Source: a virus
Lineage: Duplodnaviria; Heunggongvirae; Uroviricota; Caudoviricetes
Virus record (IMG/VR): IMGVR_UViG_2737471851_000002
Reading direction: 5' to 3' (one strand)
DNA length: 7,556 bases
This document shows, piece after piece, positions 523 to 6,533 of this stretch (positions are counted from its first letter, which is position 1; every line of letters begins with the position of its first letter). Both the position numbers and the translations under genes were made by a program. The notes under the pieces were generated by a model that was not told the DNA's origin, ran no database searches, and was given only the letters and a program-made list of their open reading frames with translations.

Positions 523-2970
523 TTAACCGTCATGCATCATGCTGGCACGGGCGCGCGCACGTTTATCCCGCTCGTATTTTTCGAGCGCATCCTGTAACTG
601 GCGGTCAAGCTGTGTCCCCGGCGCAGTACCACCCGTCAGGCTGATGTGATATTCGTTTTTACTCTGGTCCACATAAGAGCGGCCAGCCGGTGCCGTAACC
701 GGCTGATAAGCCTGATAGCCTGCATAAGAGCTGGTCGCCGGAATATAACCACCGCTGCCATACGTGGCGGCTTGAGTTCTGGCGGCGGTCTGGTCAAGTG
801 TGTCTGACTCTTTGTTGATAACACCGAGTTTTTCCAGTACCCAGTCAATTCCGCTGCGCAGTTTGTTGAACGCATTAAGCGGCAGCATCAGCGCGTCAGC
901 CAGTGCCTGCCCGAACATGACGCCAGTATCACGGCAACGGTTCAGGGTGTCCTGGGTGGCTTTGACCGGGGCAATCAGGTTTTTAAACCACTGCCACGCG
1001 GCCTGTAACTTTTCGCCCAGCCAGTCAAACACCGGCTTAAGTGGCGTGAACAGTTCCCCCACCGGCGCAAATGCCGCTTTCAGCCCTTCCATCACACCGC
1101 CAAAGAATGCGCTGACAGGCTCCCAGTATTTACGGATAAGCAACGCCCCGGCGACAATGGCGGCCACCACGGCCACAACCGGCCAGCTAATCGCCCCGAT
1201 GGCGGTCATAACAGCACTGCCAACCGTCGTGAAGATTGCCCCCATTGCGCCTGCTGCCGCGATGATGGCATTGATGCCGGTGATAACCGGCCAGGCTACA
1301 AGACCAATGGCACCGATGATGCCAGTAAGCGCCAGCGCGCCACCGGCAATTAGGCCAATGGTTGACGCCAGTGATTTGTTTTTCTGGATCCAGCCGTCGA
1401 GTTTTAACACATACTTTGTGGCCGTCTGCGTGAGCTTACGCAGTGCGCCTTCCTGCTGGTCAAACAGGTCAGTCCCCACCGCTTCATAAGCGGACTGAAA
1501 CTCCTTAAAGTCACCGCCGAGGTTGTCCTGCATGATTTTAACCAGCTCTTCCGTTTTACCGTCTGAGGCTTTCAGTGTGGCGGTCAGCTTATCCAGTTTT
1601 CCGCTTGCAGCCGCTGCCAGTAAAACGTTCGCTGATTTCAGGGCTTCCTCACCAAAAATGGTTTTAAGGTATTCCCCCTTCTGAGACGTTCCCAGCTTGT
1701 GTTTATCAAAGCTGGCCTGAATCTCTTTCAGAATGGTGAACAACGGACGCATATTTCCCTTTTTGTCCGAGGTTTTAACGCCAAGCTCTTTGAGTGCATC
1801 CCATGCTTTTCCAGTCGGTGCCTGTAATCGGGTGACAACGGCACTGCCACCCGTACCCGCCATTGACCCCCTGATGTTATTGTCATGCAGCACACCTGTC
1901 ATGGCCGCTGCCTGTTCAAGACTTACACCTGCCGTCCTCGCAACCGGACCGAGGTAAGTCAGTGCATCACTGAGTCCCTGAAAATCAGCCGCCGACTTAT
2001 TCATCGTTGCCGACAACACGTCGCCCACATGGCTGACATCATCATTTGACAGTTGAAAGGATGCCTTAGTCCCCAGCAACAGTTGCGCGTTTTCTTCCAT
2101 CGACCGCTGATTCGCCAGTGCCATATTCAGCGTGACCGGCGTTGCCGCCTGAATAGCCGCAGCATCTCCACCCGCTTTCGCAATGATAATCTGCGCACCG
2201 GCCGCATCATCCGCTGAGGCGGCGGTATTGTCGCCGAGCTGGCGCGCCTGTTTGCGGAGCGCGGCCATTTCGGCGGAATCTTTTGCCACACCGAGCACGG
2301 CCTGCAATTCTGAGTTTTTCTGCGCAAACTCATAACCGGGCATCAGCAGCTTAACTCCGGCCATCGTTCCCGCCGCCGCAATCCCCACACCGGCAGCGCC
2401 CACTGAGGCCATATTTCCGGCCAGTTCCTTTCCGGCCTGATAACGCTGTTTTACTGCGTTAAGTTTTGCCTGTTGCGCACTGACACGCACCAGCGCATCA
2501 CGCTGACGGTTAAGCTGTGCGGTGGTTTCACTGATACGGTTTTTCAGTCCCTGCTCATCATGTGCAAGATTGCGGGTATTAATTCCCACAGCGGCCAGTT
2601 CCCGCTGCTGGCGTTTAACGGAATCTGTCAGGCGGTTATATTTCGCCTGTAAGTCCTCCGCCGCACGCTTTGCGGATTCCAGGACTTTCGCCTGAGCACG
2701 GGTCGGACGTTCGGTGTTTTTAAACTGTGTGGCAAGGGCTTCGGCCTCCTGCCGTGCCTTTTCAAGTGCATGACCAGTCACGGCGAGCTGTGCACTGGTC
2801 TTGCGGAATCCCTCAATACGGGATGCGTGACCGTTCAGCTCGCGCAGTGATTTTTGTGTTTCCCGGATATCCCCCGACAGCGACTTGCTCGCTGTGCGGA
2901 TGGATTTAAACGGGCGGGATGCCTGGTCAACAGCCCTGAGCAATACCTGTAATTTTACATTGTTACTCAT
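523..2970 (-). CDS. T: Tail tape measure protein (P2 gpT-like, 815 aa)
   Basis: 815-aa ORF, the same length as I recall for P2 gpT. It has an Ala/Gln/Arg/Glu-rich, coiled-coil-like N-terminal region and Gly/Ala-rich hydrophobic stretches (e.g. GNMASVGAAGVGIAAAGTMAGV and IGLIAGGALALTGIIGAIGLVAWPV), both typical of tape measure proteins. It lies immediately downstream of E/E'. Confidence 0.9.
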   Translation of the reverse strand: MSNNVKLQVLLRAVDQASRPFKSIRTASKSLSGDIRETQKSLRELNGHASRIEGFRKTSAQLAVTGHALEKARQEAEALATQFKNTERPTRAQAKVLESAKRAAEDLQAKYNRLTDSVKRQQRELAAVGINTRNLAHDEQGLKNRISETTAQLNRQRDALVRVSAQQAKLNAVKQRYQAGKELAGNMASVGAAGVGIAAAGTMAGVKLLMPGYEFAQKNSELQAVLGVAKDSAEMAALRKQARQLGDNTAASADDAAGAQIIIAKAGGDAAAIQAATPVTLNMALANQRSMEENAQLLLGTKASFQLSNDDVSHVGDVLSATMNKSAADFQGLSDALTYLGPVARTAGVSLEQAAAMTGVLHDNNIRGSMAGTGGSAVVTRLQAPTGKAWDALKELGVKTSDKKGNMRPLFTILKEIQASFDKHKLGTSQKGEYLKTIFGEEALKSANVLLAAAASGKLDKLTATLKASDGKTEELVKIMQDNLGGDFKEFQSAYEAVGTDLFDQQEGALRKLTQTATKYVLKLDGWIQKNKSLASTIGLIAGGALALTGIIGAIGLVAWPVITGINAIIAAAGAMGAIFTTVGSAVMTAIGAISWPVVAVVAAIVAGALLIRKYWEPVSAFFGGVMEGLKAAFAPVGELFTPLKPVFDWLGEKLQAAWQWFKNLIAPVKATQDTLNRCRDTGVMFGQALADALMLPLNAFNKLRSGIDWVLEKLGVINKESDTLDQTAARTQAATYGSGGYIPATSSYAGYQAYQPVTAPAGRSYVDQSKNEYHISLTGGTAPGTQLDRQLQDALEKYERDKRARARASMMHDG

Positions 2971-3390
2971 TCGTGTTTCCGCTTCGCCGGAGCGCCTTTT
3001 CGCGCCATGTGATGAGTTCGGTCAGGCTCATGGGATACAGTTCTGATGGCGGCCAGTGAAATATCACTGCCACATCCGCCATCAGGTCATCGACCGACAG
3101 ATTTTTCGGGAACGTCACTGCACCGAGTTCGGCGACAAAAAACCGACCACCTTACCGGCCAGCGCCACAAGGTCAGGCAGTTCCAGCGCGGCGACTTCCT
3201 GCTCGGTCAGCATCGGTGCCGTCATGCGCGGCAGCACCTTAATCAGTGCATCGACTTCTGAGTTTGCGACCGCAGCCAGACTGACACCGCGCAGCGTCCC
3301 CGCACTGGGTTTCATCAGCGTGACCTGTTCGATAACCTGCTCACCACGCCTGACCGGATTGTCCAGGGTAATCACATTTTCTTTGTTCAT
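2963..3390 (-). CDS. E+E': Tail assembly chaperone E+E', made by a programmed -1 frameshift near the end of E; predicted about 141 aa
   Basis: Hand translation of the -1 frame from the slippery site is open for 57 codons (FFVAELGAVTFPKNLSVDDLMADVAVIFHWPPSELYPMSLTELITWREKALRRSGNTNE) and stops at TAA 2965..2963, overlapping the T start as ATGAGTAA. The predicted length is consistent with the roughly 142-aa P2 E+E' product as I recall it. Confidence 0.7.
3115..3390 (-). CDS. E: Tail assembly chaperone E (P2 gpE-like, 91 aa)
   Basis: 91-aa ORF between the tube and tape measure genes. It ends ...VVGFLSPNSVQ, with a TTTTTTG slippery heptamer just before its stop. Confidence 0.85.
   Translation of the reverse strand: MNKENVITLDNPVRRGEQVIEQVTLMKPSAGTLRGVSLAAVANSEVDALIKVLPRMTAPMLTEQEVAALELPDLVALAGKVVGFLSPNSVQ
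3136..3142 (-). other. Slippery heptamer TTTTTTG (within GGTTTTTTG) for the E to E' -1 frameshift
   Basis: Read directly on the minus strand at the G-F-L codons of E. A T6G site is the frameshift site described for the P2 tail operon. Confidence 0.7.
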
Positions 3391-3418
3391 GGTTTTCTCA
3401 CTTCTGAATCGGGGTTAA

Positions 3419-3439
3419 CCGGTCAGCCAGACTGACCGG
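3419..3439 (-). promoter_or_regulatory. Perfect 8-bp inverted repeat (CCGGTCAG, 5-nt spacer, CTGACCGG) between FII and E; predicted stable RNA hairpin
   Basis: Seen directly, 8 nt after the FII stop and 29 nt before the E start. No U-tract follows on the transcript (the next bases are UUAACCCC), so it is not a canonical intrinsic terminator. Confidence 0.4.
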
Positions 3440-3446
3440 ATGAAAA

Positions 3447-3965
3447 TTACAGGCCGATATTGCGGCGGTGTTGCTCCAGCCGGTCGACGCCATTCACCTT
3501 CTCAATCATGTTGATGGTGTCGATTTCGACCAGTTCCTTACCGTCCATCGTCAGCCGGAAATAGGTGCAGACCACGGAGATTTTCGACTCGGTGTCTTCT
3601 CCCTGTTTCCCCTCGCCGGTGTCGATTTCTTTCTGACGTCCACGCATGACCACCTCGACGGCCACAGTTTCGCCGGTATCGTCGCGCTGGTAAGAGCCTG
3701 CAAAACGAATCGGCACAGCATCCACACCGATTGCGGCGTAAAGCTCCCAGATAACCGAATCCGGGAAGCCCCCGAGCGACCACTCCATTGACAGTGCATC
3801 GTCATCAAGGCCGAGGTCTACCGGTGCGCTGCCGTTCATCCCCGCACCGCGATAGTTTTCGAGCTTACGGGTCAGTTTTGGCAGCGTGACGGACTTTGCA
3901 ACGCCCTGATAGCTGTAGCCGTTCAGAAAGACGTTCATTAACTTGAGTTTGCGCGGCATTGCCAT
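3447..3965 (-). CDS. FII: Tail tube protein (P2 gpFII-like, 172 aa)
   Basis: 172-aa ORF directly downstream of the sheath gene. A GGAG Shine-Dalgarno lies in the 12-nt gap after the FI stop. Length and position match P2 FII. Confidence 0.9.
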   Translation of the reverse strand: MAMPRKLKLMNVFLNGYSYQGVAKSVTLPKLTRKLENYRGAGMNGSAPVDLGLDDDALSMEWSLGGFPDSVIWELYAAIGVDAVPIRFAGSYQRDDTGETVAVEVVMRGRQKEIDTGEGKQGEDTESKISVVCTYFRLTMDGKELVEIDTINMIEKVNGVDRLEQHRRNIGL

Positions 3966-3977
3966 CGGTCAGGCTCC

Positions 3978-5168
3978 TTAATTGCTGTTAACCGAGGTGA
4001 CCAGATTTGCCAGGTATTTATCGGTAATACGCTGGCGCAGGGTCAGGTTTTCGAGAGGAGGCACCGGGGTATAGTCGTAGTCGATATACAGTTTTCCGGC
4101 CTTGAGGGTTTCCGCATCGTTGGATTCTTCGCTGAACCAGCAGGTCGCATCCACGATATAGCCGTTTGTTTTCAGCTCACGGAATTTGGCATTGATGCCG
4201 TCAACGATGTCGCGAATCAGCGTTGCGGTGATGGGCTTGTCCACCGCCCACATGTGCGCCTCAGCCATCGTGTCGGCCAGCACCTGCGCGGTGCGGGTGT
4301 AGTTTTCAAAGAGGAACAGCGGGTCATCGGAGCAGGTACGGTTACCCCAGAAGCGGAAACCGTCGCGGCGAATCAGCGTTGTGACGCCTGACTCGTTAAG
4401 CAGGTCAGCATCGGTGCCGGACTCCTGCAAATCCCAGAATACAGATGCGCTGATGCCGGTAACACCGTTCACCCCGACATTGGACAGCGTTTTATGCCAG
4501 CCCTGCTCCTGGTCGATTTTAGCGCGCAGACCCAGCGCACGGGCGGTGGCATACGCGGTGGCAGTGGTACTGGTGACCGTATCCCATGCGAGGAAATCCG
4601 GCCAGATGACCATCAGCTCACGCTGGCTGAAATTCTGACGGTAGGCTTTCACCTCGGAAATGGTTTTACAGCCCCATGCGCTGATATACCCGAAAGCGCG
4701 CAGCTTCTGACAGACTGATGCCAGTGCAACAGCCACCTCTTTGGTGTCCAGTCCCGGCACGCCGAGAATACGCGGTTTAACACCAGTTACCGACTCCGCC
4801 GCCAGCAGGGCTTTCAGTCCGGTGTACTGACCGTTTTCGTCGGTGGTGCCGATGATATTGGAAACGGTCTGCGCGAGTTTCGTTTCTTCGTCGTCGCCGG
4901 TGCCGTCTTCCACACGCACGACAACGGTGACCGGTTTTGACTGGTCGGCGATGGCCTGCAACGATGCCGCCAGCGTGCCTTTTTTACCGGCCTTTGCAAT
5001 TGCGCTCTGCACATTGGTAATCAGCACAGGTTTATTGAGGGGGAAGGTTTCCGCATCCGCATCGCTGGCCGTGCAAACCATGCCGACAATGGCAGTGGAT
5101 ACAGTGGAAATGACGCGGGTGCCATCGTTAATCTCCAGCACCTGCACGCCATGATGATAGTCACTCAT
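3978..5168 (-). CDS. FI: Contractile tail sheath protein (P2 gpFI-like, 396 aa)
   Basis: 396-aa ORF, the same length as I recall for P2 FI, and first gene of the FI-FII-E-T-U-D block. A GGAG Shine-Dalgarno sits 8 nt upstream of the ATG. Confidence 0.9.
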   Translation of the reverse strand: MSDYHHGVQVLEINDGTRVISTVSTAIVGMVCTASDADAETFPLNKPVLITNVQSAIAKAGKKGTLAASLQAIADQSKPVTVVVRVEDGTGDDEETKLAQTVSNIIGTTDENGQYTGLKALLAAESVTGVKPRILGVPGLDTKEVAVALASVCQKLRAFGYISAWGCKTISEVKAYRQNFSQRELMVIWPDFLAWDTVTSTTATAYATARALGLRAKIDQEQGWHKTLSNVGVNGVTGISASVFWDLQESGTDADLLNESGVTTLIRRDGFRFWGNRTCSDDPLFLFENYTRTAQVLADTMAEAHMWAVDKPITATLIRDIVDGINAKFRELKTNGYIVDATCWFSEESNDAETLKAGKLYIDYDYTPVPPLENLTLRQRITDKYLANLVTSVNSN

Positions 5169-5257
5169 CCGTTTAACTCCGTGGTTAATGGGTGCAACTA
5201 TTTTCTGTTGGGCAGTGCATGAGACGCTATTTGACCTGGCTGGTCAGTGGATGAAAC

Positions 5258-5295
5258 AACAGATAAAGAAAAGGCGGGCAATCAGCTTGCCTGCC
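5258..5295 (-). terminator. Candidate rho-independent terminator on the minus strand
   Basis: Minus-strand RNA reads GGCAGGCAA, loop GCUGAU, UUGCCCGCC (9-bp GC-rich stem with one A-C mismatch), followed directly by UUUUCUUUAUCUGUUGUUU. It lies about 130 nt after the stop of the cargo ORF and about 90 nt before the FI start. Confidence 0.45.
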
Positions 5296-5345
5296 TTGAT
5301 TTGTACTCTCTCTGTTTCCAACTGACAAATTACGTAACCAAAATT

Positions 5346-5361
5346 CTGTCAAATCTGACAG
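5346..5361. promoter_or_regulatory. Inverted repeat CTGTCA-AATC-TGACAG (TGT-N8-ACA core); possible regulator binding site
   Basis: Seen directly in the intergenic region between the cargo ORF and FI. A second imperfect dyad, TGT-N9-ACA, lies at 5313..5327. Neither has the TGT-N12-ACA spacing I recall for Ogr-dependent P2 late promoters. Confidence 0.25.
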
Positions 5362-5428
5362 CCTGTTTTGAGCGAAGAGCGGACCTGAGATTGTGGTATG
5401 CTAATTTATGGGGAGCAGGTCAATTGTA

Positions 5429-6253
5429 TTAGTTATCTTTTTGCTTTTCTTTATCCCATTTCTTTGCAGTGGTCTGATACCACTCTTCACGTGCTCGTTG
5501 TTCCTCGGCTCTGTCACTTGAATTATAGTTGTCTGTTTTAATTTTTTTGCTTCCCTGGGAAATCGGCCTCCAGTCTTCTCTAATCTTTTTCATCTGCTCA
5601 GCTATCTGTGTCATTGGACTCCTTGCACCTAAGTAGCTAACCCCCTCGAAAGAAGCCATATCATAAGAATACTCATTCCGCTCTCTTTCAGTTGAGCCCG
5701 GCTGTTTAGACCAGCTAATACTAACAGAATAAACTTGATCTTTAATCTGGTCATACTTACAAAGACTGCTGTTGAGGGAATGGCCGTTTTTCAATACGCT
5801 AACCTTGCTAAATGGTATACCTTTATTTTTTCTATGTTCTGCATTAACCAGTGGGGGATTAAATCCGACTTCAATATCATAGGCTGGGGCATTTCCGGTA
5901 TTAGCAATATTGATATCAAAATAAAAAGCAGCCCAAGAATTTGGTTCAAGAGTCACAACGACATGAGGTTGAACTGATGCGTCAACCATCCTTTTTGTCT
6001 CGTCTGCTAATAGCCTTGTTACTCTCCACAAGAAAAATGTAGCAACTGCTGTTAGCAATGCTGCCAAAGCGGAGATATCGGCACTTAAATCGCCGTTCGT
6101 CTGCGGGTCACTGCCCGGCATCGGGCAAAGGCTCACTTTCGGGCAGGCGTTGGCGACAATCACTGGCGTCAGTGCAGGCCGGACGCTGGTGCAACCGGCG
6201 CACAGCATCAGGCAGGTCAGCGCCATACCAGCGGCGAAAATCCTCGTTTTCAT
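5429..6253 (-). CDS. lysC: LysC-like o-spanin lipoprotein start (embedded in lysB) whose frame runs on into a lower-GC cargo segment; predicted 274-aa chimeric product
   Basis: ATG at 6253..6251 with a GAGG Shine-Dalgarno 9-12 nt upstream, inside lysB in another frame. The N-terminus MKTRIFAAGMALTCLMLCAGC is a lipoprotein signal with a lipobox-like LCAGC, followed by a Pro/Cys-rich segment, as in Rz1/LysC o-spanins. The frame has no stop until 5429..5431. Downstream come a hydrophobic stretch (ISALAALLTAVATFFLW, about 6026..6076) and about 190 aa of unrecognised sequence ending in a charged tail (KKWDKEKQKDN). The start assigned by the ORF track at 6370 has no ribosome binding site and is probably not used. 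Confidence 0.55.
   Translation of the reverse strand: MKTRIFAAGMALTCLMLCAGCTSVRPALTPVIVANACPKVSLCPMPGSDPQTNGDLSADISALAALLTAVATFFLWRVTRLLADETKRMVDASVQPHVVVTLEPNSWAAFYFDINIANTGNAPAYDIEVGFNPPLVNAEHRKNKGIPFSKVSVLKNGHSLNSSLCKYDQIKDQVYSVSISWSKQPGSTERERNEYSYDMASFEGVSYLGARSPMTQIAEQMKKIREDWRPISQGSKKIKTDNYNSSDRAEEQRAREEWYQTTAKKWDKEKQKDN
5430..5990. other. Lower-GC cargo segment (about 40% GC by hand count, against roughly 55-60% in the flanking phage genes)
   Basis: GC was hand-counted in 60-nt blocks and ranged from 33% to 52%. The coding frame uses codons rare in enterobacterial and phage genes (ATA, AGA, AGG). The segment lies between the lysis cassette and the sheath gene, adjacent to FI where P2 has its Z/fun locus. 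Confidence 0.6.
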
Positions 6254-6533
6254 TAAGTAACCTCGTGATGGTTTTCTCGCGCTGTGCTTCACGTTTCGCG
6301 GCGTTCTCCAGTTCCTGACGCAGTGCCACCTGCGCCAGCTCGTTTTTGCCTGCCCTGGTAAGGGCAACATGAAGCTGGTTTTTCAGCATGGTGATGGTCG
6401 TCTGCTGTTCACTGGCGACGTTGTTCGCCCTGTCCAGCGAGGCGCGCAGGCTGGCATTTTTATGTTTCACCAGAAACAGACCGGCCACCGCCAGTGATAA
6501 CAACACAACCAGCACAGTCATCAGCTTTGACAT
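6108..6533 (-). CDS. lysB: i-spanin LysB (Rz-like, 141 aa)
   Basis: N-terminal transmembrane segment (MSKLMTVLVVLLSLAVAGLFLV) followed by a charged, helical periplasmic domain. A second ORF with a lipoprotein signal is embedded in another frame, the Rz/Rz1 arrangement. GAGG Shine-Dalgarno upstream. The start overlaps the lysA 3' end by 13 nt. Confidence 0.85.
   Translation of the reverse strand: MSKLMTVLVVLLSLAVAGLFLVKHKNASLRASLDRANNVASEQQTTITMLKNQLHVALTRAGKNELAQVALRQELENAAKREAQREKTITRLLNENEDFRRWYGADLPDAVRRLHQRPACTDASDCRQRLPESEPLPDAGQ

Follow-up and report, generated by a model that had tools for sequence, protein, structure and literature searches.

An in-frame fusion of the spanin gene lysC to a Z-region cargo gene, very probably the scar of an 8,404-bp deletion in a defective P2-like prophage of Escherichia coli

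[quoted passage not shown] The P2-like phages have a two-component spanin instead, in which the i-spanin is LysB and the o-spanin is LysC, a protein of 96 aa whose gene starts in the +1 frame inside lysB. In lambda, the C-terminus of the o-spanin contacts the i-spanin; in a set of 528 two-component spanins the combined periplasmic length is at least 62 residues, and periplasmic cysteine was found in 0 of the 58 known u-spanins (PMC6139136). It has been speculated that u-spanins could originate when an o-spanin loses its stop codon and so acquires a TMD at its C-terminus, and the annotation of o-spanins was described as a problem in the same work (Kongari et al. 2018, PMC6139136). The P2 Z/fun locus has been named as a defence locus, and defective P2-like elements that retain accessory genes have been reported in E. 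coli (PMC13586616). In the Z region of P2-EC53 a gene is annotated as 'ORF1, putative lysogenic conversion protein' (AJ512682), and literature searches on P2-EC53 and on the assembly accession found nothing.

The DNA analysed in this report, called the window below, is a stretch of 7,556 bp that is evidently a whole draft contig, as an exact look-up of the chimeric gene product placed it on two contigs of which the longest has just this length. According to its list of open reading frames, with names taken from homologues, it contains part of an E. coli P2-like (Peduovirus) prophage with every gene on the minus strand (Table 1). The homologous matches of its lysB carry the RefSeq name 'Rz-like lysis system protein LysB'. 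In intact relatives R, S, V, W, J, I, H and G intervene between the lysis cassette and FI, whereas in the window FI follows the lysis cassette directly. The window ends 28 nt past the stop of U on one side and inside the holin gene Y on the other, and these end positions suggest repeat-induced contig breaks and thereby at least one further P2-like prophage in the source genome.

A first-pass annotation had proposed that the lysC frame does not terminate at a stop of its own and runs for 274 codons into cargo, and this is what translation gives: the minus-strand frame is open from the ATG at 6253-6251 to the stop at 5431-5429. The mechanical open reading frame reaches upstream to 6370, but the real start is at 6253, and it was taken as such because a GAGG Shine-Dalgarno sequence stands 7 nt upstream and because model position 2 of NCBIfam P2_Rz1 (NF038368) aligns with residue 5. 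The lipoprotein signal and the Pro/Cys-rich stretch that had been cited in support of this start are likewise present, as are the hydrophobic helix at residues 60-78 with R/K residues behind it, the hydrophilic region of about 190 residues and the Lys/Glu-rich tail, and translation and hydropathy bear out the suggested architecture, in which a lipoprotein signal is followed by a TM helix and a novel domain.

Table 1. Features of the window (coordinates of the window, "." where no strand applies) and internal deletions in related prophages.
Feature	Position	Strand	Basis
Endolysin K	7458-6961	-	ORF list and homologue names
lysA	6946-6521	-	ORF list and homologue names
lysB (i-spanin), intact, 141 aa	6108..6533	-	ORF list; 100% identical to intact prophage L020
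lysC Shine-Dalgarno GAGG, 7 nt upstream of ATG	6261..6264	-	Read from sequence; identical in P2-like phages
lysC::ORF1 chimeric frame	6253-5429	-	ORF list, translation
LysC lipoprotein signal peptide and lipobox, codons 1-21	6191..6253	-	Translation, hydropathy, NCBIfam NF038368 match
Remaining LysC-derived part, codons 22-59, Pro/Cys-rich, predicted periplasmic	6078..6190	-	LysC comparison
Deletion junction, 4-bp microhomology TATC (lysC codon 59/60 and ORF1 codon 15/16)	6074..6077	.	Base-by-base comparison with L005, L003
Cargo transmembrane helix, chimera residues 60-78	6020..6076	-	KD19 = 1.85; AVATFFLWRVT motif; long AF2 helix
Seven-strand beta-sandwich, chimera residues ~98-198	5660..5962	-	AF2 model
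C-terminal helices and Lys/Glu-rich tail, chimera residues ~213-274	5432..5617	-	AF2 helices H153-172, H185-213; conserved QIAEQxKKIREDW motif
ORF1 native stop codon, now stop of the chimera	5429..5431	-	ORF list, translation
Z region right end and spacer upstream of FI, kept	5169..5428	.	Sequence comparison
FI tail sheath gene	3978..5168	-	ORF list, comparison with intact relatives
Tube FII	3965-3447	-	ORF list and homologue names
E	3390-3115	-	ORF list and homologue names
Tape measure T	2970-523	-	ORF list and homologue names
U	508-29	-	ORF list and homologue names
Related prophage: terminase P joined to J, ~10.4 kb lost, 2-bp overlap	one of L009 (~2053), L015 (~9006-9021), L013 (~1506)
Related prophage: P joined to tube FII	L009, L015, L013 set
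Related prophage: 0.5-kb deletion in V-J, 3-bp overlap	L009, L015, L013 set

The first 60 residues of the chimera are those of a P2-like LysC. They are identical to LysC of P2_4C9 (60/60) and similarity is absent beyond, so that the alignment recommended in the first-pass annotation for finding the end of homology places it at residue 60. The profile matches are cut short in the same way: Pfam LysC (PF23793) is covered at model positions 1-50 of 69 only, with 28 bits for the chimera versus 60 bits for the native protein, and NCBIfam P2_Rz1 at model positions 2-66 of 85. In common with P2 LysC the chimera has the start codon, the Shine-Dalgarno sequence, the +1-frame site within the 3' part of lysB (6533-6108), the signal peptide and the lipobox; the predicted lipoprotein signal is MKTRIFAAGMALTCLMLCAG followed by Cys21 as the lipidated residue, with Thr-Ser at +2/+3. 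It differs in that 214 foreign residues stand in place of LysC residues 61-96, so that Cys70, Cys80 and the last third of the family model are missing. Seen in this light, the chimera is a truncated and fused LysC derivative and probably no functional family member, and since the missing 36 C-terminal residues comprise both cysteines and complete the family model, the o-spanin function has probably been lost with them.

Beyond the junction, codons 61-274 correspond to residues 17-230 of ORF1, a membrane-anchored cargo protein of 230 aa. Residues 56-274 of the chimera align with residues 12-230 of the native protein at 99% identity over 219 aa, and the phrog_11802 profile is matched at positions 12-230 of 230 (E = 9e-139). 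The length of the open frame is thus not due to chance, because past codon 60 the reading follows a conserved gene of 230 aa in its native frame. The change of origin can also be followed in the base composition, where G+C goes from 0.55-0.60 to 0.38-0.44 across the junction, and in the division of the region by megablast, with matches to P2-like lysB-lysC on the lysis side and to the P2-EC53 Z region, phage R18C and many E. coli prophages on the other side. Residues 60-78 of the chimera, ISALAALLTAVATFFLWRV, form the sole hydrophobic segment besides the signal in the hydropathy profile and contain a motif, AVATFFLWRVT, that is nearly invariant among 46 ORF1 homologues.

When the chimera is compared with ORF1 of the Z region (AJ512682; phrog_11802; also in many E. 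coli P2-like prophages and in phage R18C), the identity over residues 17-230 is 97-100%, and the stop codon, the downstream spacer and the position beside the FI sheath gene are the same. The promoter, ribosome-binding site, start and 16-residue N-tail are gone, and the chimera has a 60-residue lipoprotein leader instead; by the annotation of AJ512682 the -10 signal, the ribosome-binding site and the ATG are all located upstream of the breakpoint, and the window lacks them. As a protein the chimera therefore retains the parts of the ORF1 family (about 230 aa with a short N-tail, TM helix, beta-sandwich and C-terminal helices), with only the variable N-tail replaced. As an independent gene, with promoter, ribosome-binding site and start of its own between G and FI, ORF1 no longer exists in the window, from which G is deleted as well. 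Downstream of the chimera, positions 5297-5379 match the 'right inverted repeat' of AJ512682 with 85.5% identity, the left repeat is not retained in the window, and hairpin-like sites are found at 5271-5297 and 5346-5361.

An intact prophage for comparison was found by exact look-up of the K and T proteins of the window, in assembly GCA_012725145.1 (AATDLD010000003.1; loci L020 and L010), where one contig has both. Window positions 7556-6074 are identical to L020 9903-11385, and positions 6077-5365 to L020 19786-20498, both with 100% identity, and the rest of the window compared with L010 has 1 base different in 6,077. The window is accordingly the intact prophage minus L020 11386-19789, a segment of 8,404 bp, and the endpoints within the intact prophage read ...GCCGATATC followed across the breakpoint by CGGCAG, and ...ACACTTATC followed by TCCGCT. 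The absent segment contains R and S for tail completion, V, W, J and I for the baseplate, H and G for the tail fibre and a 261-aa ORF on the opposite strand, together with lysC codons 61-96 and the 5' end of ORF1 (the first 16 codons, the promoter and the ribosome-binding site); two small cargo ORFs, one of 92 aa and a DUF3606 ORF, were also lost. Two origins had been offered in the first-pass annotation, and the comparison separates them: one of them, that lysC lost its own stop where recombination joined the two segments, agrees with the sequence, and the other, a newly captured cargo gene, can be put aside since the TM helix and the hydrophilic domain belong to one pre-existing gene, the Z-region ORF1, minus its first 16 codons. 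A sequencing error whose correction would restore the lysC stop is excluded, because the 3' end of lysC is physically absent and not out of frame.

From these comparisons we consider it very likely that the 274-codon frame marks the scar of a recent deletion, at a short match, in a P2-like E. coli prophage that is now defective, and that it is an ordinary by-product of decay. In the simplest scheme one event, independent of RecA and mediated by microhomology, would have removed the 8,404 bp and joined the TATC in lysC codon 59/60 to the TATC in ORF1 codon 15/16, and the frames of lysC and ORF1 would have matched by chance (one in three), which would give the in-frame fusion. A ribosome starting from the lysC Shine-Dalgarno sequence and ATG would then read LysC residues 1-60 followed by ORF1 residues 17-230, and the frame stays open past the junction because it is ORF1's own. 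The tail-completion, baseplate and tail-fibre genes are all lost, and therefore the prophage is defective and the fusion is most simply regarded as a by-product. Three other E. coli assemblies, recognised by loci with an identical tape-measure protein and compared with L020 and L010, carry the same prophage with 100% identity and with different internal deletions (Table 1), and these three independent deletions in the same prophage lineage, together with the lack of other database sequences with the junction (see below), are the grounds for reading the fusion as ordinary decay. To be set against this reading is that the in-frame result and the kept predicted topology of the cargo part are compatible with selection, although chance alone would give the frame in 1 of 3 cases. 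The cryptic P2-like prophages of E. coli resemble the present case in that essential morphogenesis genes were lost by internal deletion and accessory genes were kept; the difference is that the breakpoint pair of the window yields an in-frame fusion of a lysis gene and a cargo gene, which occurs in no other record. The type of event is well known and the lysC::ORF1 fusion itself is undescribed.

Site-specific recombination at the 'inverted repeats' of the Z region was considered and rejected, as the breakpoint is at neither of the annotated repeats. The left (L002 3-115) and right (L002 1983-2073) repeats of AJ512682 showed no mutual complementarity by blastn-short.

The junction is found in two E. 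coli draft contigs, of which one is the window itself; both records are short draft contigs and may not be from independent isolates. The other, GenBank contig JUBZ01000089.1 (4,305 bp, equal to window 1828-6132), is identical across the junction base for base and ends 59 nt into lysC, which is exactly the stretch still held in common with intact lysC; this end point would fit the presence of another P2-like prophage in that genome but does not prove it. Of 5,426 complete E. coli genomes and 50,697 phage records none had the junction, and the junction 25-mer had no exact match in the genome, viral and metagenome contig collections. At the protein level, exact look-ups of the 313-aa and 274-aa products gave no match, and only a 230-aa gene call from Met45 is recorded. 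In a search of 5.8 billion protein sequences no other protein spanned both halves, the maximum query coverage being 80%, and LysC homologues with the same extension, which would have pointed to a long native form, were accordingly not encountered. Matches of 263-275 aa that at first resembled long LysC homologues (P0005, P0011, P0019, P0129) are upstream-start miscalls of native ORF1.

Such a distribution leads to the question of whether the junction could be an artefact of assembly or library preparation, with lysC and the ORF1 of an intact prophage wrongly brought together in the contig, for instance by chimeric reads in a genome with several P2-like prophages. In line with this, the window is a whole short draft contig that ends in phage genes, as happens where repeats break assemblies, the other contig with the junction stops just 59 nt into lysC, no complete genome has the junction, and both flanks are identical to an intact prophage elsewhere. 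However, with only 4 bp in common the two sides could not have been joined by a k-mer or overlap assembler unless reads spanned the junction, and the identical junction is present in two contigs of different lengths and under two GenBank protein accessions. Furthermore, L006 passes the junction from the cargo side unbranched, which speaks for the lack of an intact ORF1 5' end in that assembly, and real deletions of the same kind are seen in the sister prophages on contigs of at least 0.3 Mb. We therefore consider an artefact to be very improbable.

It appears very improbable to us that the fusion is a selected new gene, either a u-spanin-like tether that replaces the LysB-LysC contact or a cargo effector with an altered N-terminus that is made only in late expression. 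The frame has been kept, the lipobox and the outer-membrane sorting residues Thr-Ser (+2/+3) are intact and are followed by a TMD, the predicted orientation of the cargo domain is unchanged, and the N-tail is the least conserved part of the ORF1 family; the loss of a stop codon whereby an o-spanin gains a TMD is moreover the origin speculated for u-spanins by Kongari et al. 2018 (PMC6139136). With the T1 gp11 u-spanins the chimera would have in common that a single polypeptide, encoded at the end of the lysis cassette, combines an N-terminal outer-membrane lipoprotein signal (Cys21, then Thr-Ser at +2/+3) with a TMD for the inner membrane, as predicted from its sequence, but there is no sequence similarity, and where those proteins have a long, beta-rich, Cys-free periplasmic domain the chimera has a Pro/Cys-rich linker of only 39 residues, against the minimum combined length of 62, that holds Cys37 and Cys43. 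Its TMD, at residues 60-78 of 274, is not C-terminal and has 196 residues after it. The fusion was moreover found in one lineage only, the same event destroyed the tail genes so that no virions are left for the lysis cassette to release, and the sister prophages have unrelated deletions. That the fusion is a natural example of the path to u-spanins described by Kongari et al. 2018, tethering the membranes or jamming lipoprotein sorting, is in our opinion very doubtful. If it were true, the lipidated N-terminus would be offered to the Lol pathway when the late operon is turned on, with the protein kept in the inner membrane by its TMD and the cargo domain kept there with it, and a new lysis or toxicity phenotype would follow. 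A fusion that is made and active would give a handle on whether an o-spanin leader with a TMD behaves like a u-spanin, and nothing in our data indicates that it does.

Taken as a deletion scar, the fusion has several predicted consequences. With the genes lost, the prophage would no longer be able to build tails. The cargo domain, which has lost its lysogenic promoter, would be made only upon Ogr-dependent transcription of the late lysis operon, since the ORF1 promoter is gone and no sigma-70-like site was found within 5100-6400; the deletion would in this way have shifted a cargo gene from lysogenic to late-operon control. Upstream of FI, a search for a strict TGT-N12-ACA late-promoter dyad was negative. 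The N-tail of native ORF1 contains 0 Lys/Arg and has a net charge of -2, and four Lys/Arg are located within 15 residues past the helix, and from this charge distribution alone an N-out/C-in orientation is predicted by the positive-inside rule. The chimeric product, if made, would be exported, lipidated at Cys21 and then stopped by the ORF1 helix as a stop-transfer anchor. The predicted result is an inner-membrane protein with a lipidated periplasmic tail of 39 residues and the beta-sandwich in the cytoplasm. Cleavage of the lipoprotein signal would put the N-terminal side of the chimera outside, and its topology would be equal to that predicted for native ORF1.

As a case of prophage decay, the locus offers a breakpoint resolved to the base, a near-identical intact parent and sister deletions, and together they illustrate how a prophage may be disabled in one step while a cargo gene survives. 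It also gives reason for caution in annotation. GenBank and RefSeq have at window 5429-6121 (minus strand) a 'hypothetical protein' of 230 aa that starts from Met45 of the LysC frame (KHH12486.1, KIG44073.1, WP_040079308.1), a call that hides both the truncated spanin and the fusion. The length of this call is by coincidence that of native ORF1 (230 aa), by which the fusion is masked.

The cargo family is arguably the more interesting object, being widespread and located in phage and satellite hotspots. In the protein database search the ORF1 family, of about 230 aa, was found in Enterobacteriaceae, Pseudomonas, Rhizobium and Caulobacter, and from the alignment and the AF2 model (mean pLDDT 84.8) its members begin with an N-tail that varies, followed by a TM helix that hardly does, a beta-sandwich of seven strands and, at the C-terminus, two helices. 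ORF1 had no Pfam or NCBIfam match, and neither the chimera nor native ORF1 matched a family in PADLOC-DB v2 at E <= 0.1; searches with the fold gave matches to generic beta-sandwiches or uncharacterised phage proteins only. The contexts of the family resemble cargo or defence hotspots, as in the P2 Z/fun locus, in a P4-type satellite beside an AbiJ_NTD4 protein and at the Pseudomonas and Rhizobium loci described below, and from genomic context as the only basis a role in membrane-anchored exclusion or defence is a reasonable guess.

A variant of ORF1 with 190-220 aa and 68-70% identity is common in E. coli, and in this variant the N-tail and TM helix are replaced by 'MAKFSKPLHHFR' (L026, L027 4001-4627; P0027, P0045, P0054, P0062 and others); the 5' end of the ORF1 family has therefore been disrupted more than once. 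The neighbours of the variant are an IS-type HTH_Tnp_1 ORF, an AbiJ_NTD4 protein and a P4-type primase. Distant homologues are also found outside P2-like phages (L029 5001-6657; L028 5001-6520). In Rhizobium the homologue is preceded by a DUF6680 protein and immediately followed by a CAP12-PCTIR TIR-domain protein, and in Pseudomonas putida it shares a small island with a capsid gene and an integrase and is followed by an unannotated ORF of 270 aa. Both loci may be two-gene modules.

Some further observations concern gene calls in and around these loci. In intact P2-like records (L004 1920-2078; L016-L025 ~11233-11496) lysC is usually called with 52-87 aa as compared with 96, from a start downstream of the lipoprotein signal, which is the annotation problem that Kongari et al. 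2018 described for o-spanins. On the plus strand beneath the chimera of the window, the ORFs at 5735-5977 and 6058-6318 are without family matches. Two overlapping plus-strand ORFs in the spacer between ORF1 and FI, at 5188-5325 and 5247-5432, both match phrog_11095, at profile positions 1-33 and 22-71 of 76, and they may be one small family split over two frames, either as a frameshifted small gene or as a family of spurious calls.
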